From: Paenibacillaceae bacterium
GTDB taxonomy: Bacteria > Bacillota > Clostridia > Lachnospirales > Lachnospiraceae
Direction of reading: 5' to 3'
DNA: 64,000 nucleotides
Assembly (NCBI GenBank): GCA_015057715.1
Contig: SVDS01000006.1
Span: forward strand, 7,140-71,139
Below are positions 12,970 through 56,900 of this stretch, piece after piece. Under the pieces are notes generated by a model, which was given only the letters and a program-made list of their open reading frames with translations, was not told where the DNA came from and searched no databases. Every line of letters begins with the position of its first letter. Positions within the stretch are counted from its first letter, which is position 1. A program made the position numbers and the translations under genes.

Positions 12970-13404
12970 TTATGTGTTCAATTCAAGCGCTTTATTTAGA
13001 ATTTTAACCAGGGAAGACAACGTGATTTCCTTTTCCTCTTCAGTCAGATTACCAGTAATAAGTTCTATTAATTTACCTATCTCCTCTCTGATCTGGGGAA
13101 GAATGAGCCTTGCTTTATCAGTCAGATATAATTTGTATGCCCTGCTGTCCAATTGATCTTCTATTTTCACTACATAGCCAACCTCTGTCAGCCTGCTGAT
13201 GGTTCTGGCAGACATTGCTTTATCATGTCCAATCAGTTCACTGATCCGGCTCTGACATAATCCTTCATTTTGCTCCATTATAAATAAATAGTAAAACGAT
13301 CCGCTGCTTAAATCATATTGTTTTAGTACTTTGTCTAAATAACTCTGTGTATTTCTGTATATTTTACTGTTTAGCATCATTAAATTCATTGGTTCATTCC
13401 CCAT
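12970..13404 (-). CDS. MarR-family transcriptional regulator
   Basis: wHTH core LCQSRISELIGHDKAMSARTISRLTEVGYVVKIEDQLDSRAYKLYLTDKA. Start set at the ATG at 13404 with AAGGTGG 7 nt upstream. The ORF-track start (13428) is a TTG. Confidence 0.85.
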   Translation of the reverse strand: MGNEPMNLMMLNSKIYRNTQSYLDKVLKQYDLSSGSFYYLFIMEQNEGLCQSRISELIGHDKAMSARTISRLTEVGYVVKIEDQLDSRAYKLYLTDKARLILPQIREEIGKLIELITGNLTEEEKEITLSSLVKILNKALELNT

Positions 13405-13448
13405 TTTATTACCACCTTTTTTATTCAACTTCTTACTCTATCAGGATT

Positions 13449-13466
13449 TAGTTGATTAGTCAACTA
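13449..13466. promoter_or_regulatory. Perfect inverted repeat TAGTTGA-N4-TCAACTA, candidate MarR operator
   Basis: 7-bp arms with a 4-bp spacer, 45 bp upstream of the MarR start in its promoter region. Confidence 0.4.
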
Positions 13467-13470
13467 TTAT

Positions 13471-13505
13471 CAAAAAAAAAAGACTGGTATCCCTGATACG
13501 AGTCT
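13471..13505 (-). terminator. Rho-independent terminator after the 102-aa ORF
   Basis: Minus strand reads AGACTCGTATC-AGG-GATACCAGTCT followed by T10 (plus-strand A-run 13471-13480). Confidence 0.65.
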
Positions 13506-13542
13506 TTTTTCCGGATTCTTTCTATGTATGACAAGAATTATA

Positions 13543-13851
13543 TTAAATCTGGTTTATTAATCCTCTTCGCTCTACTTCTTCTTTGAATAACTGATATTTT
13601 GCTTCATTTAATTTTAAAAATGAGCGGTAAAATACTCCATATGCCAGAAACGCAAGAATCTTATTATTACGATTTCTGTCCGTTATTTTATAAAAATAAA
13701 TCAGCTTCTTGTCTTTCAATTTTCCTTTTGCTATTTTCTTTTTAATATTGTTCTGTTCCACTTTAGCCATGAAATTCATATAAAGCCCGTTGATAAAAAA
13801 CAATACTCCAAGAAAAACAATAAAAATTATAACAGCTATTAAATCATCCAT
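13543..13851 (-). CDS. Small hypothetical membrane-anchored protein
   Basis: 102 aa. N-terminal TM helix LIAVIIFIVFLGVLFFINGLY, then a Lys-rich region. RBS GGGAGGA. AT-rich. No family recognised. Confidence 0.5.
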   Translation of the reverse strand: MDDLIAVIIFIVFLGVLFFINGLYMNFMAKVEQNNIKKKIAKGKLKDKKLIYFYKITDRNRNNKILAFLAYGVFYRSFLKLNEAKYQLFKEEVERRGLINQI

Positions 13852-13954
13852 ACTTTTTTCCTCCCTGGTTTCAAAATCAGAAAGAATATACCATAATTAT
13901 CCACTTTTGTAAAGAGATGATCTGATTTAATCTTGACATAAGTATGCCCATAGG

Positions 13955-14130
13955 ATAGAATGATCAAAGGATGAGGGAGTAGTCAGCATCTGCCCGGGTC
14001 AGGTTAGATGCCTGCAAAGTCAACATACTGACAGTTTTTTCTGTCTGGCTTTGCTAATTTGTTTTCAATACAAAAAGACGAGACTTATCTGTGTGTTCAT
14101 TTCTGTACACACAGATAAGTCTTTTTATTA
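13955..14130 (+). promoter_or_regulatory. yybP-ykoY (Mn2+) riboswitch with terminator expression platform, upstream of mntP
   Basis: Conserved-looking GAGGGAGTAG (about 13974-13983) and GTCAACATACTGAC (about 14020-14033). Followed by the hairpin agacttatctgtgtg / cacacagataagtct (14083-14123) plus a T-run. The genomic context (mntP) is the classic one. Confidence 0.6.
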
Positions 14131-30693: not shown

Positions 30694-31914
30694 TTATTTA
30701 GCAATCACTTTCACAAACTTCTTCTTACCCCGACGCACAACAGCTCCGTCAGTCAGCTGTTCTCTGGTATAGGAAGCTTTTATGTCATTCACGGTCTCTC
30801 CCTCTACGGTAACTCCGCCCTGTTCCACATTCCGTCTTGCTTCTGAACGGGAGGGTGCCAGTCCTGATTTCTGGAGAATGGTCAAAATATCAACACTGCC
30901 GTCTGTAAAATCAGCTTCATCAAGCTCACATAATGGCATATTTTCTGCATTACCGCCTGTAAACAGCTCTCTTGCGCTCTTTTTCGCCTTCTCTGCCTCT
31001 TCTTCCCCATGTACCAGCTTGGTCAGCTCATAAGCTAGAATTTCTTTTGCCTCGTTTAACTGGCTGCCTTCCCAGCTATCCATCTCATCGATCTGGCTTA
31101 AAGGAAGGAAGGTAAGCATACGCAGACATTTTAATACATCCGCATCGGCAATATTTCTCCAGTACTGGAAGAAATCAAATGGAGAAGTCTTTTCCGGATC
31201 AAGCCACACAGCCCCGGACTGGGTCTTTCCCATCTTCTTGCCTTCTGAGTTTAACAGCAGGGTGATGGTCATTGCGTGGGCATCCTTACCAAGCTTTCTG
31301 CGGATCAGTTCGGTTCCTCCAAGCATGTTGCTCCACTGATCATCTCCGCCGAACTGCATGTTGCAACCATGGCGCTGGAACAGCTCGTAGAAATCGTAGC
31401 TCTGCATGATCATATAGTTAAATTCCAGGAAGCTTAATCCTTTTTCCATACGCTGTTTGTAGCATTCTGCACTGAGCATCCGGTTTACTGAGAAATGTGG
31501 ACCGATTTCCCGCAGGAATTCAACGTAATTTAGATCCAACAGCCAGTCCGCATTGTTTACCATCATTGCTTTTCCTTCAGAAAAGTCAATAAAACGGCTC
31601 ATCTGCTGTTTAAAGCATTCACAGTTATGGGCAATGGTTTCCACTGTCATCATCTGACGCATGTCGCTTCTTCCGGATGGATCGCCAACCATAGCGGTTC
31701 CTCCGCCGATTAAAGCGATTGGTTTATTTCCTGCCTCCTGCAGACGTTTCATTAAACACAGAGCCATAAAATGTCCCACATGGAGACTGTCTGCTGTTGG
31801 GTCAAATCCAATATAAAATACTGCCTTTCCTTCATTGACCATTTTGCTGATCTCTTCTTCGTTGGTCACCTGGGCAATCAGCCCTCTGGCTTTCAGTTCT
31901 TCGTAGATTGTCAT
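30694..31914 (-). CDS. tyrS: Tyrosine--tRNA ligase
   Basis: 406 aa. HIGH-type motif [15 protein letters not shown]-type KMGKT and a C-terminal S4 domain. Confidence 0.95.
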
Positions 31915-31924
31915 TCCAATTCTC

Positions 31925-32225
31925 CTTTACAAAAAAATAAACCCCGTCCTGTTAAAAGGACGAGGTTAAAATCTCGCGTTACCACCTTTTTTCATAAACA
32001 GCTCACGCTGCTTATCTCTTCAAGTACCGTCTGATACTCTAGCACAATAACGGGTGCAGGAATCCGTCGCCGCCTACTGGGCAATCATGCCTTTGGGAGC
32101 GAAGCTCAAAGATGTATTCGCAGTCCGTTTTCCATGCGCCTTTCATCAACCGGCTGCTTTCTGTCTGGTTTTACGTACTGTTACTTGTTCTTATCAATGC
32201 TTTTGTTTATATATGAAGTTAGTTT
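31925..32225 (-). promoter_or_regulatory. T-box leader of tyrS with Tyr (UAC) specifier
   Basis: Minus-strand GGTGGTAACGCGAG (31986-31973). Terminator CCTCGTCCT-TTTAAC-AGGACGGGG plus a T-run (31965-31931). F-box CCGTTA. Specifier-loop GAA-TAC-A (TAC = 32116-32114). Promoter TTGACA (32256-32251)-17-TATACT (32233-32228). Confidence 0.9.
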
Positions 32226-35086: not shown

Positions 35087-35232
35087 ATCATTCTCCTCAC
35101 TTTTTCGCTGTTAATAACAGTTTTTTAAGTTAATTAATTGCATGAAAACTTTGATAATAATTTATCATACATTGTTCACTTTAAAAAGTTTTGGAATGTA
35201 AAGAAGACCTTTTGTAAGTAAAAAAAGAGAGA

Positions 35233-37011
35233 TTAACCATTAATATCTTTTAATTCTTCATGATACATCTCCCTATAAATGGAGCAGTCTTTCATTAATT
35301 TATCATGGCTACCAACTCCAACTATTTCACCACCTTCTAATACAACTATTTTAGTGGCATTTTTTGCGATTTTAACTCTATGAGTGATATAAATTCCAAT
35401 TTTGTCTTTACTTATATCAAAAAAACTTTTAAATATTTTCATTTCAGCCATTGCATCCAAAGCAGAACTTGGTTCATCAAGTAAAATAACATCTGCTTTT
35501 CTGTAATATGCTCTAGCTAAAGCTATTTTTTGCCATTGTCCTCCTGAAAGCTGACTTCCATTGTCAAACCAATTTCCTAAAGTCTTATTCAAATCATAAT
35601 AACCATTACTTTTCAAGAAATTTACGTTTGCTTTATTTAACGCCACATAAATTTCATCTGGATTTGCTTGCTTCGTAATATCTCCAATTACAATATTCTC
35701 TTCCAATGATCCTTCAAACTTTAAAAAATCTTGAAATAAAACTGATGTTCTTTTTCTATACGATTCAACGTCATATTCATTTATGTCTTGACCATTGACA
35801 AAAAAACAGCCCCTTGTTGATTTATAAAGTCCACAAATGATTTTGAATAATGTACTCTTTCCTGATCCATTTTTCCCGACTATAGCAATTTGTTCTCCTA
35901 TGTTGAGTTTTAAAGTAACATTCCTTAAAACATCGTCAAATTCAGGATAATCGTATCCTACTCCAGATAATTCCAATGAAGAAATTCTTTCTATTTTTAT
36001 TTTTGTTTCATTAACAACTTCTTCACCTTCTAAATTATTTAAAAATTCTTCTAATAATCGAATATACAAATTTGAATTATAAATAGTATAAATTCCTGAT
36101 GCCAAAGCATTTGTAGATCCTTGAACCATATTGATTGCATTTAAAAATGACATAGCTGTTCCAATCATTATAGAACCAATGTAAGCAGCATGAATTGCCA
36201 AAATCATTGTTACCAGACTAAATACATCTTGTATAAGAGCAATTGATATATTTAGGGCCGTTTTAAATTTCTCAATTTGATTTGATTGAGTAATAAAAAT
36301 ATTACTTAATTCTATATATTTATTTATAAAGTGGTTTTTTAGTCCAAAAGACTTTATCTCTTTAAAAGCAGTGTCATGAGTTAAAAGATAAGAATAGTAC
36401 CATGATTCTCTTTCCTTATCACTTCTTTTATATTTAATAATAAATTCTTTATCGCCTATAATTATCTCACCTGCAAACATTGAAAGAGAAATGACAAGGA
36501 GAATAACTTCTATCCAAACATTCCAGGAAATCAATATTATAGAAGCTAATATGGCGGATACTACATTAGAAAAAATACTCATAATTGCCTGTAAAGTCTG
36601 ATATGGCTTTGTAGCTATATCTTGCTCCAGACGTGCTATTGTATCATATGTCTCTGTTCTCTCAAGCGTTTCCAGGGATAATTTTGAACACTTCTCAATA
36701 ATGATTTTATTAATTCCATACTGCAATATGTTATTAAGTTTGTTTAATGTATAACCATTTATATTTTGTAATATTGTCCCTATACCAGATATTGCAAAAT
36801 ATATAATGATTAATTGTAATAAATTATTAAATGGTTTTTTTAGTAGTTGTATTTCATTAATAATTCTTTGACTTAACAAGAGTGTGGCAATAGGAAACCC
36901 TCCATTTATAAGTGATAGTATTAAAGAAAAAATAAACGTTTTTTTATTTATTTTACAAAGCAACCGAATCGTGTATATAAATAATCTTATATTGCTTTTA
37001 AATTTATTCAT
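35233..37011 (-). CDS. ABC exporter, fused TMD-NBD half transporter (peptide/bacteriocin-export type, no C39 peptidase domain)
   Basis: 592 aa. Six N-terminal TM helices begin at residue about 25. Walker A GKNGSGKST, signature LSGGQWQ, Walker B ILLDEPSSALD. Very AT-rich. RBS GAGGA. Confidence 0.85.
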   Translation of the reverse strand: MNKFKSNIRLFIYTIRLLCKINKKTFIFSLILSLINGGFPIATLLLSQRIINEIQLLKKPFNNLLQLIIIYFAISGIGTILQNINGYTLNKLNNILQYGINKIIIEKCSKLSLETLERTETYDTIARLEQDIATKPYQTLQAIMSIFSNVVSAILASIILISWNVWIEVILLVISLSMFAGEIIIGDKEFIIKYKRSDKERESWYYSYLLTHDTAFKEIKSFGLKNHFINKYIELSNIFITQSNQIEKFKTALNISIALIQDVFSLVTMILAIHAAYIGSIMIGTAMSFLNAINMVQGSTNALASGIYTIYNSNLYIRLLEEFLNNLEGEEVVNETKIKIERISSLELSGVGYDYPEFDDVLRNVTLKLNIGEQIAIVGKNGSGKSTLFKIICGLYKSTRGCFFVNGQDINEYDVESYRKRTSVLFQDFLKFEGSLEENIVIGDITKQANPDEIYVALNKANVNFLKSNGYYDLNKTLGNWFDNGSQLSGGQWQKIALARAYYRKADVILLDEPSSALDAMAEMKIFKSFFDISKDKIGIYITHRVKIAKNATKIVVLEGGEIVGVGSHDKLMKDCSIYREMYHEELKDING

Positions 37012-37040
37012 TATAATCCTCAGATATTATTATTTGGTTA

Positions 37041-37086
37041 GAAAGAGGTAGCATCTGAGAAAATTCTCAGATGCTACTGTCTTTCA
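37041..37086 (-). terminator. Stem-loop between the peptide gene and the exporter gene (partial terminator, attenuator or processing site)
   Basis: 12-bp perfect core stem gtagcatctgag (37048-37059) / ctcagatgctac (37066-37077), extendable by gaaaga/tctttc. Begins 13 nt after the peptide stop. No strong T-run follows. Confidence 0.5.
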
Positions 37087-37098
37087 ACGGCAAGTCAA

Positions 37099-37296
37099 TT
37101 ATGATGAGGACCGCACGGTTTTAATAGACTTTACTCTATTTCCTGTGCGATATTCACCACTACCACCACAGCCACAGCCACAATGAACGCAGCCATCATC
37201 ATTGCCTCTGTATCCAGCATATCCGCTAGAACATGTACATGCTTGAGGCTGAATACCACTTCCTGGGTTTCTCCCAATTGGATTGATGAATTTCAT
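37099..37296 (-). CDS. 65-aa Cys/Gly-rich candidate RiPP precursor peptide
   Basis: ATG at 37296 lies 7 nt after AAGGAGA. Sequence: MKFINPIGRNPGSGIQPQACTCSSGYAGYRGNDDGCVHCGCGCGGSGEYRTGNRVKSIKTVRSSS, with Cys at 20, 22, 36, 39, 41 and 43. Located 62 nt downstream of the radical SAM gene and followed by a hairpin and an ABC exporter. Confidence 0.7.
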   Translation of the reverse strand: MKFINPIGRNPGSGIQPQACTCSSGYAGYRGNDDGCVHCGCGCGGSGEYRTGNRVKSIKTVRSSS

Positions 37297-37358
37297 AGTT
37301 AATTCTCCTTTCCATTTCATTCTAAATACATTTATGTAAAACAAACGTATTTGACTAA

Positions 37359-38912
37359 CTAACGAAAATCCTTAGTATTATATTCCATCAGTTCTTCAGG
37401 ATTTTCTTCTAGTTCTGTGTGATAGCGAACCAGATTGTTTTCTAAATACAACCTCTCATTTCTACACGAATTATGTCTATATGAAAAATGTGGACCTTTT
37501 TGATCATAGCAATTCACATAACACATTGTACAAAGATTTACCGCCCAACAGTCTTTGCAATATTCCTTAGCATTATCTATAAAATCATTAACATACAATT
37601 TCTGAATACCCTCAAAATTAAATCCAGTATCAACATTTCCAATATCCGGAATATTTCCGACTTTTTCGCAGAGGAGAAATTTACCATCTACAGTTACATA
37701 TATTCTTCTTTGACCCGGAACACAACAACCGTTCATTCCATACGCTTTAACCGGATACTCGGATAATAGACGCTTATGTATAATTAACATTCCTTTATCC
37801 ATAACGCCATCTGAGAATAACCCCTTTTTCTCATTACCATTTTTCATTTCTCTGCGATGATTCCAATCCCATTCATTTAGCGGATCGTATGAACCATCTG
37901 TAAATTCACGTTCCTGAGAGCTTTGGGGAATAAAATATTCACTATCCTTAGGACCATGATCAACAGATGCAGTCAAAACCATAATATCTTTAGGAATCCA
38001 ATCTTCATGCTCTAAAAATTCCTGTATTTTATTATAGTTTTCTTCATAATTCGGACCTGAAACTACCATATTAAAAGATATTTTTGATTGCTTTCCTAAC
38101 CTGCTTTGTGTGTTTAGTAAAATTTGAGCACCTGCAACAGTTTTATTAAAGCTTCCCGTTCCATCTATGGTTATCCGATTCGCATCATGAATGTCTTTAG
38201 GACCATCTAAGCTTACAATAATATCAAAATCATTTTGTAATAAATAATCTGCAATTTCCTCAGTTACCAAAGCTGCATTGGTTGTCATTGCAAAAGTTAT
38301 TTCTTTAAAATTACTTTTTGCATATCTTACCGCTTGTTTAATTAATTCAAAGTTTAATAAGGGCTCTCCTCCATAAAAACCAATATGAACCTGTTCTGCA
38401 TCTTTAGAATGATTAATTAATAAATCGATTGCCTTTTTAGCTGTTTCCCAAGACATATTTTTGTGCCCAAACTCCCGATACTCTTTATGTGAAGGATTAT
38501 AAATACAGTATTTACATCGTAAGTTACATTTTTCGGTCACTTCCAGTGTGACATTCTCCACTCCACTTTCTAAAGTTTCCTTTAAGTGAGTTACTGCCGA
38601 ACCAGTTAATGTCGTAAGTACTGGAGCTGATAATATATGCTCTGATTTCACTGCATCTCTAATTTCGCTTATTGCACTTTCAATTTCCTCATCATTTAAA
38701 TCAAGATCTTTCAGATCTTCACAGCTATCGCTTTGCATTAAACAGTTCAAAACTTTATATACATTTTTTTTCAAACATGCAACCTTACCTGTTCCAGTAT
38801 CTAGAAAATAATAATTTTTGTCTGTTTTAAAAACTTTCCCCAGTCTACCCGGTCTACCACTGGAACAAAGTTCATTATAAAAATCTTTAATGCTATTATT
38901 AACAGCGACCAT
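37359..38912 (-). CDS. Radical SAM / SPASM-domain peptide maturase with an approximately 120-aa N-terminal extension
   Basis: 517 aa. C129-NLR-C-KY-C (first Cys codon 38528-38526), GGEPLL, and a C-terminal CVPGQRRIYVTVDGKFLLC ... CKDCWAVNLCTMC ... C pattern (auxiliary-cluster SPASM type). RBS AAGGAGA. Confidence 0.9.
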   Translation of the reverse strand: MVAVNNSIKDFYNELCSSGRPGRLGKVFKTDKNYYFLDTGTGKVACLKKNVYKVLNCLMQSDSCEDLKDLDLNDEEIESAISEIRDAVKSEHILSAPVLTTLTGSAVTHLKETLESGVENVTLEVTEKCNLRCKYCIYNPSHKEYREFGHKNMSWETAKKAIDLLINHSKDAEQVHIGFYGGEPLLNFELIKQAVRYAKSNFKEITFAMTTNAALVTEEIADYLLQNDFDIIVSLDGPKDIHDANRITIDGTGSFNKTVAGAQILLNTQSRLGKQSKISFNMVVSGPNYEENYNKIQEFLEHEDWIPKDIMVLTASVDHGPKDSEYFIPQSSQEREFTDGSYDPLNEWDWNHRREMKNGNEKKGLFSDGVMDKGMLIIHKRLLSEYPVKAYGMNGCCVPGQRRIYVTVDGKFLLCEKVGNIPDIGNVDTGFNFEGIQKLYVNDFIDNAKEYCKDCWAVNLCTMCYVNCYDQKGPHFSYRHNSCRNERLYLENNLVRYHTELEENPEELMEYNTKDFR

Positions 38913-39177
38913 ATTAATTCTCCTTCCATTACCAATCTTTTCTTGATAAAAATTTCATAAATAAAAAATCTTTTTTGTCTGGTATTATGATATCAAACAA
39001 AAAAGATTCCTATTTTAAGATTTTATATTAAAATTTAAAAGAATTGATTAAGAAACTTATTAATTATGGTACAAAAGTTATTAGTAATTTAAGTATTTAT
39101 TGTGCTATGTTTATATCTTTTTTAAATAAACTCACACAAACCGTTATATATACTTTTGATAATGTATAATTGATTTA

Positions 39178-40242
39178 CTAGTTTGGTATGGTAATTGTAA
39201 AAGAAATCGTTCCATCTTCACTTTTTGCAACAATGTCACCACAATGCAACTGTACAATTTCTTTCGCTATAGATAAGCCAAGACCTGCGCCATTTGAAAC
39301 AGATGCTCTCGATTTATCTAAACGATTAAATTTTTCAAAAATACGTAATAACTCCATTTCTGATAAGGTTTCACCCTCATTTTTAAAAACGATAATAAGC
39401 TTATCATCACAAATTTTTGCTGATATAAATATCTCCGTGTTTGAATAACTATAACTGATTGCATTCTTCAATAAATTGCTAAATGCTCTGGTCATTTTCT
39501 CAGGATCTATATTGCAATACAAATTTTCATTGATCTCTAATTTTAAAATATTGCCATTTTCTACGAGCATTGGGTAAAATTCATCTGTCAGTTGTACAAA
39601 CAAATAATATAAATCTACTTCTTGTTTATTAATTTCAATTTTTTGTGTATTATATTGAGTGATTTCGAAAAACTCATTTACCATTTGCTCTAGATGCATC
39701 GCCTTAGCAAGTAATATTTCTATATATTCTTGTCTTTTATTAACAGTTAATTCCGGCATATCTTTAATTAAGCTTAAATACCCAATAATAGAGGTTAATG
39801 GTGTTCGGATATCATGCGCTATATATGCAACTAATTCACTTTTTTTACTTTCTGCAACTTTCATTGACTGATCTGCCATTAAGTATGACATCTTAATCTG
39901 ATTCATTTGTGATTCAATTTCTTTTAATGGTTCAGATAATTTAATCACAGAATCATTTTTAAATAAAATCTCTACAGCATTAATTATTTCGTTTAGATAT
40001 TTCCACGGCTTATTCCAATAATACATAAATATATTTATAAAACCTATAATTATATATAGGAACTGAATCAATTCAATACGAAGTGTGAACCATTCCATTA
40101 TCGATGTATGGATCTTGCTCGAATAATAATCAAAAATTATTCTAAGAATCCAACCAATTACCAAATAAAGTAACAGGCTAATTATAAGATGGCACACCAG
40201 CTTTTTACTGCATTTAATATACTTCTCATTTTCCTTATACAA
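39178..40242 (-). CDS. VanS-like sensor histidine kinase, copy 1
   Basis: Two N-terminal TM helices with a short loop. H-box AHDIRTPLTSIIGYLSL, N-box LLKNAISYS, G-box GAGLGLSIA. Start proposed at the TTG at 40242 overlapping the RR1 stop (ATTGTATAA), by length alignment with copy 2. The ORF-track start (40365) would overlap RR1 by 131 nt. Confidence 0.8.
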   Translation of the reverse strand: MYKENEKYIKCSKKLVCHLIISLLLYLVIGWILRIIFDYYSSKIHTSIMEWFTLRIELIQFLYIIIGFINIFMYYWNKPWKYLNEIINAVEILFKNDSVIKLSEPLKEIESQMNQIKMSYLMADQSMKVAESKKSELVAYIAHDIRTPLTSIIGYLSLIKDMPELTVNKRQEYIEILLAKAMHLEQMVNEFFEITQYNTQKIEINKQEVDLYYLFVQLTDEFYPMLVENGNILKLEINENLYCNIDPEKMTRAFSNLLKNAISYSYSNTEIFISAKICDDKLIIVFKNEGETLSEMELLRIFEKFNRLDKSRASVSNGAGLGLSIAKEIVQLHCGDIVAKSEDGTISFTITIPN

Positions 40243-40927
40243 TTTTATAGCCAACCCCCCATACTGTTTTAATAAATTTGGGGTTTCCTGCCTGATCGCC
40301 AAGCTTTTCACGCAAATGACGCACGTGAACAGATATGGTGTTATTTTTTGTATAATAATCATCATGCCAAATTAGTCTAAAAAGTTCATCAGAGCTAACT
40401 ACTTCTCCTTTATGTTCCAACAGCAATCGTAATATATCATATTCACACGGTGTCAAGTTAAGCTGCTTTCCCTTTAAGCTACACTCTCTTGTTTTTACGT
40501 TGAGTTCCAAACCTAAGTATGACAAAACTCCTGAAAAATCTTCTACATCTGTCTGATTATATTTTTTGTATCTTCTTAGCTGCGCTTTCACTCTTGCTAT
40601 CATTTCCAATGGCAAAAAAGGTTTTGTAATATAGTCATCTGCACCTAATGTTAATCCATTAATTTTACTGACTTCATCCGTTTTGGAAGTCAGCATTATA
40701 ATTGGATACCGATATACTTCTCTGATTTTTTTGCATAAAAAGAAGCCATCCTTTCCTGGTAACATAATATCCAAAAGCACAAGATCAAATTCCACTGTAT
40801 CAATAATTTTTAAAGCAGCTTCAGCCGTAAAGCATTTGTAAACCTCAAAATTCTCATTCTCCAAGTATAATTCTATGAATTCAACTATGCTTTTTTCATC
40901 TTCGACAACTAAAATTTTGTTTGACAT
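40235..40927 (-). CDS. OmpR/VanR-family response regulator, copy 1
   Basis: Receiver ILVVEDEK...DLVLLDIMLPGKDG...KP and a winged-helix output ...VHVRHLREKL...IKTVWGVGYKI. Start at the ATG at 40927 after AAGGGGGA. Confidence 0.9.
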   Translation of the reverse strand: MSNKILVVEDEKSIVEFIELYLENENFEVYKCFTAEAALKIIDTVEFDLVLLDIMLPGKDGFFLCKKIREVYRYPIIMLTSKTDEVSKINGLTLGADDYITKPFLPLEMIARVKAQLRRYKKYNQTDVEDFSGVLSYLGLELNVKTRECSLKGKQLNLTPCEYDILRLLLEHKGEVVSSDELFRLIWHDDYYTKNNTISVHVRHLREKLGDQAGNPKFIKTVWGVGYKIV

Positions 40928-40970
40928 AACTAATTTCCCCCTTATTACAAACCACAACAATCTGTCTATT

Positions 40971-40998
40971 ATTATAACATGTAACTTTAATAATGTAA
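40971..40998 (-). promoter_or_regulatory. Candidate sigma-A promoter of the RR1-HK1 unit
   Basis: Minus strand reads TTACAT (40998-40993), 16-nt spacer, TATAAT (40976-40971). Lies in a direct repeat AAGTTACAT-N5-AAGTTACAT, just downstream of a strong terminator. Confidence 0.35.
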
Positions 40999-41069
40999 CT
41001 TAAACTTTTACATTAAATAACGTTATATAACTCTATCCTATTATTTCCTTTCCTCTGTTCTTCGATTTT

Positions 41070-41127
41070 AAACAAAAATAACCCTTATAGTAAGTCACAT
41101 TTTTCTTCTTAGTGACTTACTATAAGG
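41070..41127 (-). terminator. Strong rho-independent terminator after the ABC-2 permease gene
   Basis: 17-bp perfect stem cccttatagtaagtcac (41081-41097) / gtgacttactataaggg (41111-41127), followed on the minus strand by TTATTTTTGTT. Confidence 0.85.
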
Positions 41128-41157
41128 GCATGAAAGTTTCAAATGAATTAAAATTGT

Positions 41158-42402
41158 TCAATCAACCTGATGATTGCAATAAGTGCGTACAGCAAGATAT
41201 AGAAATAGAGGTATTTCAATTAATGTTGTTGCCATTATAATATAAGGTGACCAAATGCTCAAAGAACCAATATGCAGATAATTAAAGTCTGTCAACTGAT
41301 AAAGCAAGCTATTCTGCATACCAATTCCTCCTGAAGGCAAAATAAAACCAAGCCAAGCAAATCCTGCTGTATACGTAAATATCGGAATGAGACACATAGC
41401 AATTGCAATTAAAATAACCGAAGTAGAATCCTTGAATTTTGCTGATAAAAATAATGTAAAGCTAATCATTGCCAGCAGGGAACCAAGTCCTCCTAATGTT
41501 AAAACAGCTTGAAGCTCCCCTAAATTAAGCGCAGGCAGACTAATGACAGAAAATAACATCTGCATAGAAGTTTTCATACATTCTGGTCCAAATGCCAAGT
41601 CGGAGATTAATAAATGTAGTAAAATACAAATGAAAAATGTGATTGAAAAAATGGTCAATGCAGCAAATACCTTCACCATTGCAAGTCTGCTGCGTCCATG
41701 CCTGGTACAGCGCAAAATACTGTCTGATCCCGTTTGATATTCATTGGAAAAAGTAGGCGTAACCGCAGCTGTGCATAGAATGACTAACAGTAAAATATAA
41801 AGCATGATATAATCAAAGGCATCTCTTGAATACCCCGCATAAAACTGAAAAGGTGTTTTTACCTCAGCATATTTTTTTAAAGCCTGCTTCTGTGCAATTG
41901 GATTATCCTTATGCTCCATCTGCATAACATCTTTCAAGTGCTGCTCTACTTGTTCATAATAATTGTTTATCTTATCCGGGTTGATATCCATCAGACTTGC
42001 TGCCTGACCCGTTCTCGAATTAGAAAACGCCTCCGGCAGTCTTCCTAAAAGCGATTCGACCGGGAAAACCTTTTTAATATAAAGATCTTTTGGAAAATCT
42101 CCGCTGTAAAGGCTGTTCTCTCCATATTGTGATACTGTATTCTGATAGATTATTAACGCCTCCTTTAGTTTTTCCGGAGTGACTTCTCCGTTATTGGTGT
42201 GGCGCAACGTTTTTTTATAGGAAATTGCAGACAGGCCATTTAATTCGGCTACTTTGTTACCGTTTTGGTCATATTGATTGATATCTTCAAAAATAACAGG
42301 AAGCCAAGCCATTACCACGGACAATAATAGTGCAACAACTAATATAATAATTACACGGCGTGACTTAAGCACGCGTTTGATTTCCAAACAATAAATACGC
42401 AT
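41158..42402 (-). CDS. ABC-2-type transporter permease with a large first extracellular loop
   Basis: 414 aa. TM1 (VIIILVVALLLSVVMAWLPVIF), an approximately 170-aa soluble loop, then 5 TM helices. Translationally coupled to the upstream ATPase. Confidence 0.8.
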   Translation of the reverse strand: MRIYCLEIKRVLKSRRVIIILVVALLLSVVMAWLPVIFEDINQYDQNGNKVAELNGLSAISYKKTLRHTNNGEVTPEKLKEALIIYQNTVSQYGENSLYSGDFPKDLYIKKVFPVESLLGRLPEAFSNSRTGQAASLMDINPDKINNYYEQVEQHLKDVMQMEHKDNPIAQKQALKKYAEVKTPFQFYAGYSRDAFDYIMLYILLLVILCTAAVTPTFSNEYQTGSDSILRCTRHGRSRLAMVKVFAALTIFSITFFICILLHLLISDLAFGPECMKTSMQMLFSVISLPALNLGELQAVLTLGGLGSLLAMISFTLFLSAKFKDSTSVILIAIAMCLIPIFTYTAGFAWLGFILPSGGIGMQNSLLYQLTDFNYLHIGSLSIWSPYIIMATTLIEIPLFLYLAVRTYCNHQVD

Positions 42403-42405
42403 CGA

Positions 42406-43293
42406 TTACATCCCCCTTTCACTGACTTCTTCTTGCGGAAATAACCATAAATATAAATCTTCCAAACGAGGAGGTGCCAATACCGAGTTACTGGTTTTTC
42501 CTTCATCCGATAAATAACGGATTGATACCTGGTTGCTGCCTTCACTTCGCTGGTTAATGATGCGCAGCTGCATTTCATACATGGTGATCTTCTCGGCAGG
42601 CACAACACAAGTCCAGACCTTTCCCTGTACCTGCTTTACCAATTCGTCTGTTGTACCCACATTTACAATTTTACCTGCCTTCATAATTGCATTCTTTGTA
42701 GAAATATACTCAATATCAGATACGATATGGGTTGAAATTAAAACAATTCTTCCGTGGGAAAATTCGGAAACAAGGTTTCGAAAGCGAACCCTTTCGCCAG
42801 GATCAAGGCCTGCTGTTGGTTCGTCCATAATCAGAATTTTAGGATCATTCAACATCGCCTGTGCAATTCCCACCCGTCGTTTCATTCCACCGGACAACTT
42901 AATAATTTTTTTATTTTTTACATCCGTCAGGGTCAGTGTGTGCAGCAGATTGTCAATTTTTTTTCTTGTTTCCCTTACAGGTACATCCTTTAGGGCAGCC
43001 ACATATTCCAGATAATTCTTTACTGTAAAATCTTGAAAAAATCCAAAATCCTGAGGTAGAAATCCAAATAAATCTCTATATTCTTCCCCCATTGAATGAA
43101 TATCCCTGCCATCATAAAGAATTTTCCCGCTGGTTGGATTCAAAATATCTGCTATCATCCGCATCAGCGTGGTCTTCCCTGCTCCATTTGCTCCAAGCAG
43201 CCCCCATACTCCTGGCGTAAGACTTAAGTTAACATCATCTACTGCCATTTTATCTTTAAAATGCTTACTCAGATTTGATATCGTCAGTTCCAT
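42406..43293 (-). CDS. ABC transporter ATP-binding protein (ABC-2/BcrA-LanF-like subfamily)
   Basis: Walker A GANGAGKTT, signature LSGGMKRR, Walker B ILIMDEPTAGLD. Start at the ATG at 43293 after GAGGAGA. The ORF-track start is a GTG at 43308. Confidence 0.9.
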   Translation of the reverse strand: MELTISNLSKHFKDKMAVDDVNLSLTPGVWGLLGANGAGKTTLMRMIADILNPTSGKILYDGRDIHSMGEEYRDLFGFLPQDFGFFQDFTVKNYLEYVAALKDVPVRETRKKIDNLLHTLTLTDVKNKKIIKLSGGMKRRVGIAQAMLNDPKILIMDEPTAGLDPGERVRFRNLVSEFSHGRIVLISTHIVSDIEYISTKNAIMKAGKIVNVGTTDELVKQVQGKVWTCVVPAEKITMYEMQLRIINQRSEGSNQVSIRYLSDEGKTSNSVLAPPRLEDLYLWLFPQEEVSERGM

Positions 43294-43328
43294 GTCATTT
43301 CTCCTCACTTTTATTTAATAACAATGCA

Positions 43329-43370
43329 AAACGTCCCTGTTCTGTTTTATTTTACTGAACAAGGACGTTT
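43329..43370 (-). other. Strong stem-loop between HK2 and the ABC-2 operon (terminator of the RR2-HK2 unit and/or 5'-UTR structure)
   Basis: Minus strand reads AACGTCCTTGTTC-loop-GAACAGGGACGTT (one G-U pair) followed by TTGCATTGTTATT. Confidence 0.5.
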
Positions 43371-43396
43371 GATACTTTAAGATGAAGAGGATAATT

Positions 43397-43439
43397 TCCT
43401 AAGATTATCCTAACATCCTATTGATATTTTCCTAAAAAT
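43397..43439 (-). promoter_or_regulatory. Helically phased direct repeats (plus-strand TCCTAA at 43397, 43408, 43430), candidate OmpR-family response-regulator site upstream of the ABC-2 operon
   Basis: tcctaagatt / tcctaacatc / tcctaaaaat with 11-bp and 22-bp offsets. The first copy contains the heptamer TAAGATT also found in tandem upstream of RR2. Confidence 0.4.
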
Positions 43440-44487
43440 GACCAGGTAATGACACGGTAAAGGTAACCATATTGTTTTCACTATCTGCGGAAATTTTTCC
43501 GCCATGTAAACGAACAATTTCATCTGCAATGGATAAACCAAGCCCGGCACCACCAGTATCCGATTTACGGGCATCATCCAAACGGTTAAATTTTTCAAAA
43601 ATTGCAGTTAACTGATCAGGCGGAATTGTACTGCCATGATTAGTAAATGTAATAATGACTTTATCCTGTTGCTGTTCTGCTTTAATAATAATTTCCGAAT
43701 CAGGACTGGAATATGCAGCCGCGTTTTTGAGGATATTATTAAACACACGGGCCAATTTTTCAGAATCACCATAAACAGTCAGCATTTCATCTGCCTGAAG
43801 TATAGCAAAATTACCTTTCGCCGATAAGACTGGATAAAATTCGTCAATCAGTTGAACAAGCATATAATATAAATCCACATTTGTTTTCTCCAGCTTAATC
43901 TGGTGGGTATTATACCGTGCAATTTCAAAGAATTCGTTAATGAGTTTTTCCAGACGTATGGCTTTTTTCAATGTAATGCCAACATATTTTGATTTCTGTT
44001 CCATCGGCATGTCAGGCGCTTCGTCAAGCAGGCTTAAATACCCGATTATTGAGGTAAGTGGTGTGCGAATATCATGGGCCAGGTACATAACTAATTCATT
44101 CTTTTTGTTTTCTGCCTCTTTTACAGCCTGTTGACTGAGCAGGACGGCCATTTTAATTTGATTCATCTGCTTTTCCACATCTTTCAGCGGTTCGGATAAT
44201 TCAATGGCGCTGTCATTTAATTGATAGACGGTTTTAGTGGCTTTGACAACTTCCTCAAAATATAACCATGGTTTTTTCCAGTAATAATAGAAAATACAGC
44301 AACAGCCAACTACCAGATACAGAAAATAGAAAATTTCAATTCTAAGTTGGAGCCATAGAAAAAAAGAATTGGTTACTCTGCTGAATGCATAATCTAATAG
44401 TACCGTCAAAATATAGCCAGCCAACGTATACAGGATTAAGGTGACGAAAAGCCTGACACGTAATTTCTTTTCAATATTATTCTTCAT
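43432..44487 (-). CDS. VanS-like sensor histidine kinase, copy 2
   Basis: 351 aa, same architecture as copy 1. Shared strings: LSEPLK, QMNQIKM, AHDIRTPLTSIIGYLSL, NEFFEI, FEKFNRLD, GAGLGLSIA. Confidence 0.85.
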   Translation of the reverse strand: MKNNIEKKLRVRLFVTLILYTLAGYILTVLLDYAFSRVTNSFFLWLQLRIEIFYFLYLVVGCCCIFYYYWKKPWLYFEEVVKATKTVYQLNDSAIELSEPLKDVEKQMNQIKMAVLLSQQAVKEAENKKNELVMYLAHDIRTPLTSIIGYLSLLDEAPDMPMEQKSKYVGITLKKAIRLEKLINEFFEIARYNTHQIKLEKTNVDLYYMLVQLIDEFYPVLSAKGNFAILQADEMLTVYGDSEKLARVFNNILKNAAAYSSPDSEIIIKAEQQQDKVIITFTNHGSTIPPDQLTAIFEKFNRLDDARKSDTGGAGLGLSIADEIVRLHGGKISADSENNMVTFTVSLPGHF

Positions 44488-44507
44488 TACTATACCTCAA
44501 TTGGAAT

Positions 44508-45203
44508 TTATATTTTATACCCTACTCCCCATATCGTTTTAATGTATTTGGGTTCCTCTGCAGTGTCATCCATCTTCTCACGCAAATGCCGTATATGAAC
44601 GGTAATCGTGTTATTGCTTTTGCTGTAATACTCATCATGCCATATCTCATGAAACAGCGTTTCTGCGCTTACAACCGTTCCCTTATTCTGGAGTAAAATA
44701 CAGAGTATAGAAAATTCCGTTGGTGTGAGTGAAATGGGTTTTTCATTTATGAGGCATTCATGTGTTTTTGTATTAATTTCCAGATCTGAATAACACAAAA
44801 TCGGCGTTGTATCCAGTTCCTCCTTACCGGGATTGTACTTTTTGTAACGACGCAGCTGTGCTTTCACTCTGGCAATTAATTCCAGAGGGCGAAATGGTTT
44901 TGTCACATAGTCATCAGCCCCTAATGTTAAGCCCGTTATTTTATCTGTTTCTTCGTCTTTCGCGGTCAGCATAATAACCGGAAAAGTATAATGTTCTCGT
45001 ATTTTCCGGCAAAGCTCAAATCCGTTTATATCCGGCATCATAATATCTAAAATAGCAAGGTCAAGCTTTGTACTTTCTATGCAGGCAAGCGCTTCCTTTG
45101 CTGAATAATACTTACATACGGTATAGTTCTCGTTTTGCAGATAGACTTCTATTAAGTCTGCAATTTCCTGTTCGTCATCTACTACAAGAATGATATCATT
45201 CAT
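44508..45203 (-). CDS. OmpR/VanR-family response regulator, copy 2
   Basis: 231 aa, collinear with copy 1 (LTLGADDY.TKPF.PLE.IARVKAQLRRYKKYN ... HLREK ... GVGYKI). RBS AAAGGAGGAA. Confidence 0.9.
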   Translation of the reverse strand: MNDIILVVDDEQEIADLIEVYLQNENYTVCKYYSAKEALACIESTKLDLAILDIMMPDINGFELCRKIREHYTFPVIMLTAKDEETDKITGLTLGADDYVTKPFRPLELIARVKAQLRRYKKYNPGKEELDTTPILCYSDLEINTKTHECLINEKPISLTPTEFSILCILLQNKGTVVSAETLFHEIWHDEYYSKSNNTITVHIRHLREKMDDTAEEPKYIKTIWGVGYKI

Positions 45204-45288
45204 AACTTCCTCCTTTCAGGCATATTAAGGTATTTTATTATTGTATCAGAAATTGCTTTTCTATTTGTAAATTCTTGCATGAGGAATT

Positions 45289-45310
45289 ACTAAGATTTTC
45301 ATAAGATTAT
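45289..45310 (-). promoter_or_regulatory. Tandem TAAGATT direct repeat (11-bp period) upstream of the RR2-HK2 unit, candidate autoregulatory site
   Basis: taagatt at 45291-45297 and 45302-45308, about 90-105 bp upstream of the RR2 start. An extended -10 TGATACAAT lies downstream on the minus strand. Confidence 0.35.
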
Positions 45311-53912: not shown

Positions 53913-56900
53913 TTATGATTTCACCCATTCACCCTTTTCATTAACCCGGTATCCATCAGGCGTAACCGTATTTAAGAGGCATTCTCCTGACTGGTTTAAA
54001 TAATACCAGCTGTCATTTACCATAACCCAGCCAGTTGCCATGGAACCGTCCGCATTCATAAAATACCAGTTTTCTCCTGTCCATACCCAGTTTGTCTGCA
54101 TTCCTCCGTCGGTTGCCAGATAGTACCATTTTCCCTCTACCTGCTTCCAGCCGGTAGTCATATATCCGGTCTGCCCGAAGTAATACCAGACACCGTTGAC
54201 CTTTGCCCATTCCTCTTTGGGATAGGTGCCGTCTTTCTTCTTTAAACGCCATCCTTTCTCATCCTGCTTCCAGTCTCCTGTTACCTCTCCTGATCCGGTT
54301 GGCTTTCTGATACCATAATCCCTGTCCGAATCGGAATCACGATCAGAATAGGATGGGTTGGGAGCAGGGTCTGGTGTCGGCTCTGGTTCTGGTTCCGGTT
54401 CTGGTTCCGGCTCATCAATGCCAGGCAGCACTGCACCAGCCTTTGCATTTCGAATCACACTTCCTCTTTTCGGGCGCAGGAAATCTCCAAACATAATCTT
54501 GCCGTCAACCCTGTAGTAGCAGGCTGCCGGATCCAGTGAGAGGAAATTTTCTCCGCCTATGGCGTTTCCGGTTTCGGTATAAAGATAATTATTGCTGATC
54601 TCACTTGCTGCTATTTTATCTCCATAAATCGTTTTCAGCTTTGCACTATATTCATCGGTCCGGTAGGAAACATTATTATTAAATATTCCATCCGCAGTCA
54701 GATTGCCAGCCACATCTTTCTTATAAGGACTTGGGCGTAAAATATAATTAAATCTGACGTTATCAAAAGAAGTATTGTTTTCAACTCTAAGCTCACCTGG
54801 ATTAAAGTTATCTGTAATTCCATCCAGATTATTGTGGTAAGCAACGCTGTTGCGTAAGATATGAGGTACTTCTCTGCCCTCTCCTCCAAGCTTGAACCCA
54901 TTATTTCCGTTGTTATATGCCACACAGTTCTCAATAATGGTTCTTCCGTTTGGTCCGTCTGACAACGTATTATACAGATCCCAGCCGTCATCCGCATTAT
55001 CATGAGATACGCAGTTTACAAACCGGTTGTTTTCTCCGGATCCTGATTTTGAGGCGAAACCATCTGCATTAATCATAGATCCATCTTTGTTTTCATATGA
55101 CTCACAGTTTACAACCACATTATAAGACGGCCATAAGCTTCTGCTGCCTCTTGATTTTGTAATGGTCAGACCTGCATCACTGGATGTATTGTGAATCAGG
55201 GAATCCTTCATCAAATTATAGCTGCCGTGAATCATAACACCTCGGCTGTCTACTACATTACGCCCATCCACATCAAGTCCAATAACATTCCAGTAATCTG
55301 AATCTAAAACAAATATCTTTAAGTTTCCTGTTATCGTAACTTTCCCCACAGCAATCAGGTTCTTTCTGTTATTCTCATTTCCTGACGCAGTCAAAGGAAT
55401 CTGGAATGGCTGATAGATCCCCTCCTTCATGTAAATCGTTCCACCTGGTACAATTTTCTTTACTGCAGCCTCAATGGACATTGGATCAGCGGCTGTTCCC
55501 ACCCCACTTTCTGATCCTTCCGATGAAGCATAAAGATCTTTACCATAATCTTCTCTTTTTACCTGAAATGTCTTTACGATTTCCTTTCCGGAATCCAGCC
55601 CTTCGGATGGTACAAAGGTCAGTTTAAATTCTCCTCCGGACTCATTTAACACGGCTGGTACTTTAAACTGAGTGCCACCGGTTACTTCAGCTTTTGAAAC
55701 AATAACGCTTCCGTCCTGGCTTACTGTCATACTGCCAGACTGATTTGTCAGCGCCTGAACCATATAATCCTGGCTGTTTGAATATTCTCCGGAAGCCACA
55801 TAAAGAGATGCCCCTTCATCATCAGGTGCTACATATGCCGGTGATTCATCCGGTATTACCACATCCGTTAAATCAAGAATAATATTTTTAACCGTTATCC
55901 TGGCATTTCTGGAAGCAAAAAATCCAACACACATCAAATCCTCATCTAAATGGGATACAATATTGGGAGTCACATTTTTATCTTTAAAGGTATATGTATT
56001 GATTACTTTTCCATCCTTATCCAGATAAGTAGTGGTAAATCCTGCATCCGTCCGTTCCAGTTTCAGCTTAAGTTCCGTATTATAACTATTGGTTTTTCCT
56101 CCTGATTTGTCTGCTTTTCCAACAGATTTTGCAAAGGTCTCAGTGGTCTTTACAGACTTTAAGTTTCCTGCCGGGCTGTTTACACCATAACGGGCTGATG
56201 CAAGTAAATTTAAGTCTGCATTAAGAGATTTTCCGGCTGCACCTACCTGCAGCATGACCATATTGGAAGCGGCTGGATACTCTTCGTATCCTTCCTCCAG
56301 AGGATCCTTTCTGGGCGGTCCGTTCACATCCCTGACCATAAGTCCCGCACCTTCCTGCAGATTGGGCTTGGTACCATTCTCCGGTCCCATCTTTTCCACT
56401 GTGACATCTGCAGTAAGAGCAAAGTTTTTGCTGGTCGGCACTTCGGTATAATAAAATGTAATCCCGTCATGTCCTGCCTGAAGCTTTCCTCCCCGGGATT
56501 CAATTACAACATCCTGAGCCGGCTTTCCATCCATTCCCAGCGGAACATCGTTATTCACAGGCCAGGTATAATTAGTTCCAACCTTATCATCTAAGACACC
56601 AGATTTAAAGTTCAAATCTGTAGACTGCCCAAATGCCGAAGACTTCCAAAGAATTTCAGATCCAGTCATCCTGCGCTTTTGAACGAAACCAGACCCATCC
56701 CACATAACCTCAGGCCCGCTGTTTGTCCAGTGGAACGGTCCGCTGCCATCCTTTGCTCTCCACCAGGCATCTGCCGCTTCTACGCGGAATGTATGTGGCA
56801 GGGATAAATCCAGATTATTTACCGTATAAAATCCATCCTTTGTGGTATAGGTTCCATTGACATGATTAAAATAATCCCCCTCCGTCGTGTAGACCGGTTT

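Follow-up and report, generated by a model that had tools for sequence, protein, structure and literature searches.

What does a block of nine minus-strand genes on contig SVDS01000006.1 of a bacterium labelled Paenibacillaceae (GenBank assembly GCA_015057715.1, placed in the Lachnospiraceae by GTDB) produce, and why does it carry two VanS-like sensors? We analyzed this block (35233-45203) within a window of 64,000 nucleotides of the contig, to which all coordinates refer; L-numbers (L083, L085, L094 etc.) designate comparison loci. Searches of all nine proteins with NCBIfam and Pfam hidden Markov models (HMMs) gave strong support to each of them. They are an ABC exporter, a short precursor peptide, a radical S-adenosylmethionine (rSAM) enzyme with a SPASM region, two pairs of VanRS-like response regulators (RR1, RR2) and histidine kinases (HK1, HK2), and the ATPase and permease of an ABC-2 pump (Table 1).

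We consider it likely that this locus directs the biosynthesis of an uncharacterised thioether peptide of the Apre_1838/CLOSPO_01332 family, most likely a sactipeptide bacteriocin, and that a resistance cassette with a mobility of its own has been joined to it. A first-pass annotation of the sequence had described nine co-directional genes forming a self-contained, complete system for a ribosomally synthesised and post-translationally modified peptide (RiPP). All nine genes were found, with minor corrections to the lengths of the ATPase (295 aa) and of HK1, which has 354 aa in public gene calls, the 395-aa open reading frame (ORF) from an ATG overlapping RR1. Also supported is the general picture: the RiPP locus is of the rSAM/SPASM type, and has VanRS-like two-component systems, an ABC-2 pump and an exporter. 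The system is, however, neither self-contained nor complete, having no leader peptidase and consisting of two separable units, hereafter modules A and B.

The precursor clearly belongs to TIGR04067 ('Apre_1838 family putative sactipeptide bacteriocin') and to PF27802, and its proposed novelty is not borne out. It scores 106 bits against the former (cutoff 45), covering profile positions 1-59 of 59, and is 70% identical to Apre_1838; Pfam PF27802 (Bacteriocin_CLOSPO-01332) is annotated on its 100%-identical cluster relative and on the genes of neighbours. An alignment of 27 precursor sequences reveals a conserved leader, MKF(I/V)NPxGR-xPGSGxQPxA, six cysteines arranged as C-x-C...C-xx-C-x-C-x-C, and then a near-invariant YRTGNR. 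Arg9 of the leader is almost invariant, and Arg18, immediately preceding the first cysteine, is present in many relatives. In Paraclostridium ghonii, the peptide encoded after an enzyme of 43% identity is more divergent and has the cysteine pattern too. Since AAGGAG lies 7 nt 5' of the ATG at 37296 and relatives begin at MKF, 65 aa is the correct length of the precursor. A 73-aa version from an upstream ATG is given by the Logan gene call; in the ENA and JGI copies of the contig the precursor is missed and a 42-aa ORF is called in another frame (37131-37259, minus strand), and the public annotation of this genome may therefore lack it.

The precursor did not match the SCIFF profile, a PDB sequence search gave no meaningful match and did not have the RumC1 structure among its matches, and alignment with an approximate RumC1 sequence was insignificant (E about 0.5-1.4). 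With that same approximate sequence, tblastn detected no true RumC locus among the loci compared. No publication mentioning the motifs HCGCGCG, YRTGNR or YAGYRGN, or PF27802, was found in the literature searched.

The best curated family for the enzyme is NF035951 (RumMC), with 451.9 bits (E = 2.8e-135) over profile positions 8-503 of 510 and a cutoff of 720, followed by CcpM (TIGR04068; 313 bits, cutoff 500) and, further down, by PapB (160 bits) and the SCIFF maturase (151 bits). The 517-aa protein is thus below the cutoff of every characterised maturase family (452 of 720 bits for RumMC, 313 of 500 for CcpM), which supports the first-pass annotation. Seven homologues, from the Clostridium botulinum group, C. 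difficile, Enterococcus faecalis, Paenibacillus, Paraclostridium and two metagenome clusters, score alike (393-488 bits on RumMC, 283-340 on CcpM), indicating that the whole enzyme clade is without a curated equivalog. The radical SAM motif is CNLRCKYC at residue 129 (CX3CX2C, residues 129-136), and the SPASM motif, at residues 396-483, is CX13GX4CX36CX2CX5CX2CX18C, a spacing identical to that reported for RumMC1/2 (PMC6779426).

Membership of the RumMC family proper was rejected on account of the score below 720, the presence of six cysteines instead of four in the precursor, and the absence of an M16 peptidase from the block. A CcpM system was likewise rejected, the enzyme reaching 313 of 500 bits and TIGR04066 and TIGR04069 being absent among the nine proteins.

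An AlphaFold model of the enzyme (predicted local distance difference test, pLDDT, 90; predicted template modelling score, pTM, 0.87) has a radical SAM barrel and a C-terminal SPASM region, preceded by an N-terminal domain of three strands and three helices (residues 25-91) that resembles the winged helix of a RiPP recognition element (RRE). In a Foldseek search, the best solved match was CteB (5why/5wgg), a thioether-forming SCIFF maturase, over about 500 columns (E = 1e-20). In this model the enzyme has the architecture of an RRE-dependent rSAM/SPASM maturase, and it is predicted to bind a leader. The RRE-like domain may recognise the conserved MKFINPIGR, after which the enzyme would connect carbons of the backbone further downstream with up to six cysteine sulfurs. 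If the pattern follows that of ruminococcin C, Cys20/Cys22 could contribute two of these bridges and Cys36/39/41/43 up to four.

How would such a peptide leave the cell? The best NCBIfam matches of the exporter are MsbA and HlyB, all far under cutoff. Against TIGR01193 (C39 peptide cleavage/export) it scores 157.8 bits (cutoff 523.85), the match beginning at profile position 157, and its first membrane helix spans residues 25-47, which leaves no room for a C39 domain. An exporter of C39 type was therefore rejected, being under the TIGR01193 cutoff with an N-terminus too short for the peptidase domain. More generally, no peptidase, C39, LanB/C/M or YcaO domain was detected in the nine block proteins by NCBIfam and Pfam scans, and the earlier claim that such genes are lacking holds for all of them. 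The peptidase-less exporter may secrete the modified peptide with the leader still on, to be trimmed by an outside protease, for which the near-invariant Arg9, and Arg18 in many relatives, would be candidate sites. In the case of ruminococcin C, trypsin is needed for final leader removal (PMC6760926, PMC6779426).

The three-gene core formed by the precursor, the RumMC-like rSAM/SPASM enzyme and the ABC exporter is conserved. The loci that we compared came from species genomes, from public assemblies and from a scan of metagenomes in which the precursor served as the seed. All relatives with enough sequence have the order rSAM-precursor-exporter, and the exporter follows the precursor in related loci just as it does in the window. 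The co-occurrence of peptide, rSAM enzyme, ABC transporter and two-component system was also borne out, homologues of the enzyme being consistently followed by the same small cysteine-rich ORF. A set of response regulator, histidine kinase, ATPase and permease genes lies directly upstream of rSAM in 16 of the 21 loci that extend 5.3 kb or more upstream of an enzyme at least 40% identical to that of the window; examples include Dorea amylophila, Coprococcus intestinihominis and many human-gut contigs, and in L085 only 23 bp separate permease and rSAM. The exceptions are two loci of the C. botulinum group (L087, L088), where an S8 subtilase precedes the enzyme, Paraclostridium ghonii (L004) and Eubacterium plexicaudatum (L049), with no sensor or pump upstream, and L083, which has the nine-gene form of the window. 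The association is therefore real, and is already the normal form of the family.

Neither the cluster type nor the pairing of an rSAM core with VanS-type sensors is as new as the first-pass annotation had supposed. The cluster of plasmid pAPRE01 was described in silico in 2011 as thuricin-CD-like (Murphy et al.; PMC3132745), and its record (NC_013164) gives a response regulator, a histidine kinase, an ABC ATPase, an ABC permease, rSAM, Apre_1838, a permease, an ABC exporter and VanZ. Moreover, an rSAM core accompanied by immunity genes, an exporter and a two-component system is already known from the RumC regulon of Ruminococcus gnavus E1 (PMC6760926). A 2022 review lists as uncharacterised a simple Clostridium sporogenes rSAM cluster that may belong to the same family, its sequence being given in a figure only (PMC9389541).

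The pump itself does not conform to the 'LanFEG-like' type to which it had been assigned. The ATPase scores 158 bits against the lantibiotic-protection family TIGR03740 (cutoff 309.75), with GldA and DrrA also below their cutoffs, and its partner is a single 414-aa ABC2_membrane_3 permease for which a membrane helix scan gives one N-terminal helix, a large outside domain of about 150 aa and five further helices. With no LanE/G-type permeases and an ATPase below the TIGR03740 cutoff, a LanFEG-type pump was rejected.

Why, then, are there two sensors? The composition of the block changes in its middle: G+C content is 30.2% for 35231-41123, 37.5% for 41124-45300 and about 43% in the flanks, and the step at 41.1 kb is also present in L083. 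The same border emerges from a sister strain, L094 (ERZ27247045 k141_136659), whose flanks are 95-98% identical to those of the window and from which exactly 35231-41123 is missing. In a blastn comparison of L094 with the window only 51018-41124 and 35230-29653 align, and at the same chromosomal site L094 has RR2, HK2, ATPase and permease genes followed directly by a flavoprotein gene. Exact-protein look-ups of two flanking genes returned nine-gene, module-B-only and too-short contigs, and no empty site with neither module. In L094, an A8-to-A7 frameshift splits the ABC ATPase gene (13100-14010) into ORFs of 119 and 155 aa, which could reflect decay, phase variation or an assembly error.

The two halves also have different closest relatives. 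RR2, HK2, ATPase and permease are 72-88% identical to their counterparts in stand-alone cassettes with no rSAM or precursor nearby, and the window permease is 74-78% identical to those of stand-alone four-gene cassettes but 47-53% to cluster-linked ones (L085/L086, L002). One such stand-alone cassette, in Anaerocolumna cellulosilytica, is on a conjugative element and has VanZ between the regulator and kinase genes; others are in a contig with a permease labelled Syntrophomonas wolfei and in Paenibacillus antibioticophila. Module B belongs to a widespread type of four-gene cassettes that also occur alone. The cassettes of L085/L086 instead resemble RR1 (83%) and HK1 (67%), with a permease 47% identical to that of the window, and that of Dorea L002 resembles RR2 (70%) and HK2 (60%), with a permease 53% identical. 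The simplest reading is that module A is an L085-type cassette minus its pump genes, now downstream of a cassette of the stand-alone type; the two sensors reflect the joining of two cassettes. Locus L083 has the same nine-gene composite, about 74-94% identical per protein, in an unrelated genomic setting, indicating that the composite predates the window strain.

Two side observations concern the mobility of these cassettes. Directly upstream of the seven-gene cassette of L085, whose rSAM is 80% identical to that of the window, are a relaxase (PF03432) and a NikA-like gene (L085 1-5500), so that this cassette is probably carried on a mobilisable element. Within the window, no integrase or transposase flanks the block.

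The two regulator-kinase pairs are paralogous, with 51% identity between HK2 and HK1 and 59% between RR2 and RR1. Against NF033117, RR2 passes the cutoff of 350 with 376.8 bits whereas RR1 reaches 333; against NF033091 (cutoff 400), both HK2 (370 bits) and HK1 (333 bits) remain below. A membrane helix scan gives HK1 two helices, with only a short loop on the outside. We rejected the reading that the window has a genuine van operon, RR1, HK1 and HK2 being below cutoffs and van genes being absent from the block.

We propose a division of labour in which RR1/HK1 would act on the promoter for production and RR2/HK2 on that of the pump, for self-protection. Such separate regulators are known from the mersacidin locus, where MrsR1 serves production and MrsR2/K2 the immunity pump. 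Each module has direct repeats ahead of its candidate target genes, and 11-bp-phased direct repeats are kept across genera. In module A, the 11-bp-phased repeat TTCTTAATCAA/TTCTTTTAAAT (39033-39054) is followed by AATCTTAAAA and a hairpin (38964-39011), with a -10-like TAAAAT at 39012-39017. This block matches the one that precedes rSAM in L083 and, in the seven-gene cassette of L085, the one that precedes the ABC ATPase gene. In module B, the repeat TTAGGATAATCTTAGGA (TTAGGA-N5-TTAGGA; 43397-43413) is followed by TTAAAGT, and a leader hairpin of 17 bp with a U-run (43329-43370) lies between the repeat and the first regulated gene. Aligned over nine loci of different genera (the window, L083, L090, L091, L092, L002, L127, L130 and L075), the repeat is invariant and eight hairpin pairs have compensatory changes; the hairpin may serve as an attenuator or as the terminator of the sensor operon. 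By count, TTAGGA-N5-TTAGGA shows no enrichment (with up to 2 mismatches allowed, 2 matches in the window against 7.7 expected), and its weight lies in its conservation across loci. The same sequence as the degenerate copy TTATGAAAATCTTAGTA before RR2 is found before the regulator gene in L083, L002, L091 and L092, and this site is a possible autoregulation site.

In both modules, the -10-like element immediately precedes the 5' arm of the hairpin, an arrangement by which the hairpins may block read-through from the sensor genes while the inducible transcript begins within them. Folding energies confirm the two further structures already noted in the first reading of the sequence. The terminator after the permease gene has a perfect 17-bp stem, a 13-nt loop and then the T-run TTATTTTTGTTT (-28.6 kcal/mol, z = -8.0), with an equivalent in L083. 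The stem-loop after the precursor is present, with differing sequences, in all six homologous loci checked (L083, L085, L002, L001, L089, L087); it is likely a partial terminator or an mRNA stabiliser, and may raise the precursor transcript relative to that of the exporter.

Table 1. Features of the nine-gene block and its modules (window coordinates).
Feature	Coordinates	Strand	Details
ABC exporter	35233-37011	-	592 aa; Pfam ABC_membrane and ABC_tran fused
Stem-loop between precursor and exporter genes	37048-37077	-	13-bp stem; -28.8 kcal/mol, z = -9.1
Precursor peptide	37099-37296	-	65 aa, Cys/Gly-rich
rSAM/SPASM maturase	37359-38912	-	517 aa; Radical_SAM and Fer4_12; N-terminal RRE-like domain
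Candidate RR1-dependent promoter region	38964-39054	-	motif-based
HK1, VanS-like histidine kinase	39178-40242	-	HisKA and HATPase_c
RR1, OmpR/VanR-family response regulator	40235-40927	-	Response_reg and Trans_reg_C
Sigma-70-like promoter before RR1	40971-40999	-	GTTACA, 17 nt, TG-TATAAT; consensus match only
Intrinsic terminator after permease gene, across the module A/B junction	41082-41128	-	stem 41082-41098 / 41112-41128
ABC-2 permease	41158-42402	-	414 aa; ABC2_membrane_3, ABC2_membrane_2
ABC ATPase, partner of the ABC-2 permease	42406-43293	-	295 aa; ABC_tran
Candidate RR2-dependent promoter and leader hairpin, between HK2 and ATPase genes	43329-43413	-	motif-based
HK2, VanS-like histidine kinase	43432-44487	-	HisKA and HATPase_c
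RR2, VanR-family response regulator	44508-45203	-	Response_reg and Trans_reg_C
Degenerate repeat copy TTATGAAAATCTTAGTA before RR2	45288-45304	-	2 mismatches; count alone not significant
Module A (terminator arm, RR1, HK1, rSAM, precursor, exporter)	35231-41123	-	5,893 bp
Module B (RR2-HK2-ABC ATPase-ABC-2 permease cassette)	41124-45310	-	37.5% GC

Several points weigh against a sactipeptide bacteriocin locus joined to its own protection. The enzyme scores beneath the cutoff of every curated maturase family, no leader peptidase was found among the nine proteins of the block, and the promoter assignments are motif-based only. No member of the precursor family with a determined structure or activity was found in the literature searched, so that crosslink type, bridge number and antibiotic activity are all inferred. 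In sequence, the clade of RumC and thuricin CD sactisynthases is reported to be nearer to ranthipeptide synthases than to AlbA and ThnB (PMC10288494), and sequence alone cannot fix whether the linkage is to alpha or to beta/gamma carbons. This last point also speaks for a product of ranthipeptide type, with cysteines linked to beta or gamma carbons, or for a signalling peptide, the two sensors then serving quorum sensing; we regard either as distinctly improbable. Such a product would agree with the lower matches to PapB and the SCIFF maturase, with CteB as the best solved fold, and with a dedicated kinase directly upstream of the biosynthetic genes. However, the RumMC match is much stronger, runs end to end and shares the SPASM spacing, the precursor has no SCIFF match, and the near-universal linkage to an efflux-type ABC-2 pump, plus VanZ in pAPRE01, fits self-protection from a toxic product. 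An alpha-carbon linkage is thus favoured by the RumMC match, although not certain. That the locus is cryptic or decaying, no active product being released for want of a leader peptidase, appears very improbable. The block indeed has no protease gene where Clostridium relatives have an adjacent S8 subtilase, and related loci do decay, with rSAM fragmented in L075 and module A missing in L094. Yet none of its nine reading frames is interrupted, promoters, ribosome-binding sites and conserved hairpins are in place, a protease is also absent from most seven-gene cassettes including that of pAPRE01, and the RumC precedent indicates that a gut protease can make the final cleavage (PMC6760926).

A different objection concerns module B, which is insulated by a terminator, widespread without RiPP genes, and beside vanG-type genes in L075, so that its role may be general and not dedicated immunity. 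Taken further, it could be unrelated to the peptide, a general VanRS-type resistance cassette against cell-envelope antibiotics that is adjacent by chance, which is possible but in our judgement unlikely. The cassette does occur by itself in Anaerocolumna (together with VanZ, and carried by a conjugative element), in the Syntrophomonas-labelled contig and in Paenibacillus, and the sister strain L094 has it without module A; it has its own promoter and a strong terminator; RR2 is above the VanR-family cutoff; and in L075 the same type of sensor controls vanW, a vanG-like ligase gene and vanT. On the other hand, homologous sensor-pump modules lie within the seven-gene cassettes of 16 of the 21 loci, some of them only 23 bp from rSAM, the nine-gene composite has been kept as a unit, with proteins about 80-90% identical, in the different genomic setting of L083, and module A has no pump of its own, so that the producer would otherwise be without candidate protection. 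In L094, which lacks module A, the ATPase has its frameshift in an A8 run (or an assembly error).

Locus L075 (1801-11970; metagenome-assembled genome Bacillota CTOTU1092, DAISVU010000001.1) deserves a description of its own. It has a VanR/VanZ/VanS-like set, VanW, a VanG-like D-Ala-D-Ser ligase and the catalytic subunit of VanT, after which come the same ABC ATPase/ABC-2 permease pair and then the fragmented RumMC-like rSAM gene. A repeat of the 43397-43413 type lies before vanW, and a variant form before the ATPase gene. VanZ-family genes were also located in L089 (12965-13486; pAPRE01) and in L090 (4372-4887; Anaerocolumna). The presence of VanZ with both the type cluster and a stand-alone cassette hints that the pressure sensed is on the cell envelope.

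The genes around the block serve the use of pectin and rhamnogalacturonan, and a protein neighbouring the block has close relatives labelled Lacrimispora and Hungatella. A T-box leader (Rfam RF00230, 114 bits; 31953-32206, minus strand) lies upstream of a tyrosyl-tRNA synthetase gene (30694-31914), whose product is identical to MBE5991238.1. Further away, 53913-59891 (minus strand) encodes a 1992-aa protein in which fn3 domains and a GH28 polygalacturonase-like region are combined with choline-binding repeats at the C-terminus. Upstream of this neighbourhood, L094 instead encodes a protein with RHS repeats, so that the region differs from strain to strain.

What would the locus mean? A bolder proposal, which we think rather unlikely, is that the product is a six-bridge thioether peptide of new topology that attacks the cell envelope (e.g. 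the lipid II cycle) and is sensed by VanS-type kinases, the stand-alone VanRS-like and ABC-2 cassette being a dedicated, community-level resistance to this class of peptides. If so, the window would represent a producer that swapped its own pump for a stand-alone cassette, thereby splitting the sensing for production from that for protection, and the cassette would have spread over the Firmicutes on conjugative elements, sometimes fused to vanG-type genes or VanZ. Were the cassette to protect against such peptides, it would be a mobile bacteriocin-resistance element worth tracking. Even on the likelier reading of a sactipeptide bacteriocin locus with a joined cassette, the family is of interest. 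It is common in human-gut and animal-gut metagenomes, yet no publication on the product of an Apre_1838-family cluster was found in the literature searched, and ruminococcin C, the nearest relative to have been characterised, is a peptide with potent activity against clostridia. The window offers a clean, intact example for heterologous expression. Current understanding is not overturned by these findings; their clearest new point is architectural, namely two sensors derived from joined cassettes and a sensor-pump cassette that circulates alone and alongside glycopeptide-resistance genes.

Among known systems, the inferred arrangement of the window resembles mersacidin in that biosynthesis and the protective ABC transporter each have a regulator of their own. 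However, mersacidin is a lanthipeptide with a LanFEG pump, whereas the window has paralogous VanRS-like pairs, a split that arose when two cassettes were joined. The likeness to vanG-type VanRS systems lies in RR2, which passes the VanR cutoff, and in the regulator and kinase of L075, 70% and 54% identical and accompanied by vanW, the vanG-like ligase and vanT. Unlike these systems, the window has no ligase, racemase or dipeptidase gene, HK2 is under the VanS cutoff, and the putative regulated genes are those of an ABC-2 pump. With CcpM/CLI_3235 (TIGR04068; e.g. SacP23 of Paenibacillus polymyxa, PMC10731318) the window shares a cysteine-rich precursor, an rSAM/SPASM maturase, an ABC transporter and predicted thioethers, but it lacks TIGR04066, TIGR04069 and the subtilase, and its precursor is of a different family.

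Ruminococcin C (RumC1-5, RumMc1/2) has the closest curated enzyme family, with the same radical SAM/SPASM cysteine spacing. Further common features are an ABC exporter, immunity genes, a two-component system and a short cysteine-containing precursor whose leader is about 19 residues long. Its leader is finally removed by an external protease, as we propose for the window. The two differ in that the window has six cysteines instead of four and one precursor and one enzyme instead of five and two; it also has no M16 peptidase RumPc, and its enzyme reaches 452 of 720 bits. The nearest system is pAPRE01 of Anaerococcus prevotii DSM 20548, whose product is also uncharacterised. It has the same precursor family, a 56%-identical rSAM and the order RR-HK-ATPase-permease-rSAM-precursor-exporter. 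pAPRE01 has a single two-component system, a second permease between precursor and exporter, and VanZ, and is a conjugative plasmid. In contrast, the window is chromosomal, with two two-component systems split by a terminator and a permease that is 30% identical and belongs to the stand-alone clade. The locus is thus a new member of the known, uncharacterised Apre_1838/CLOSPO_01332 cluster family, and its nine-gene composite is a minor architectural variant of it.

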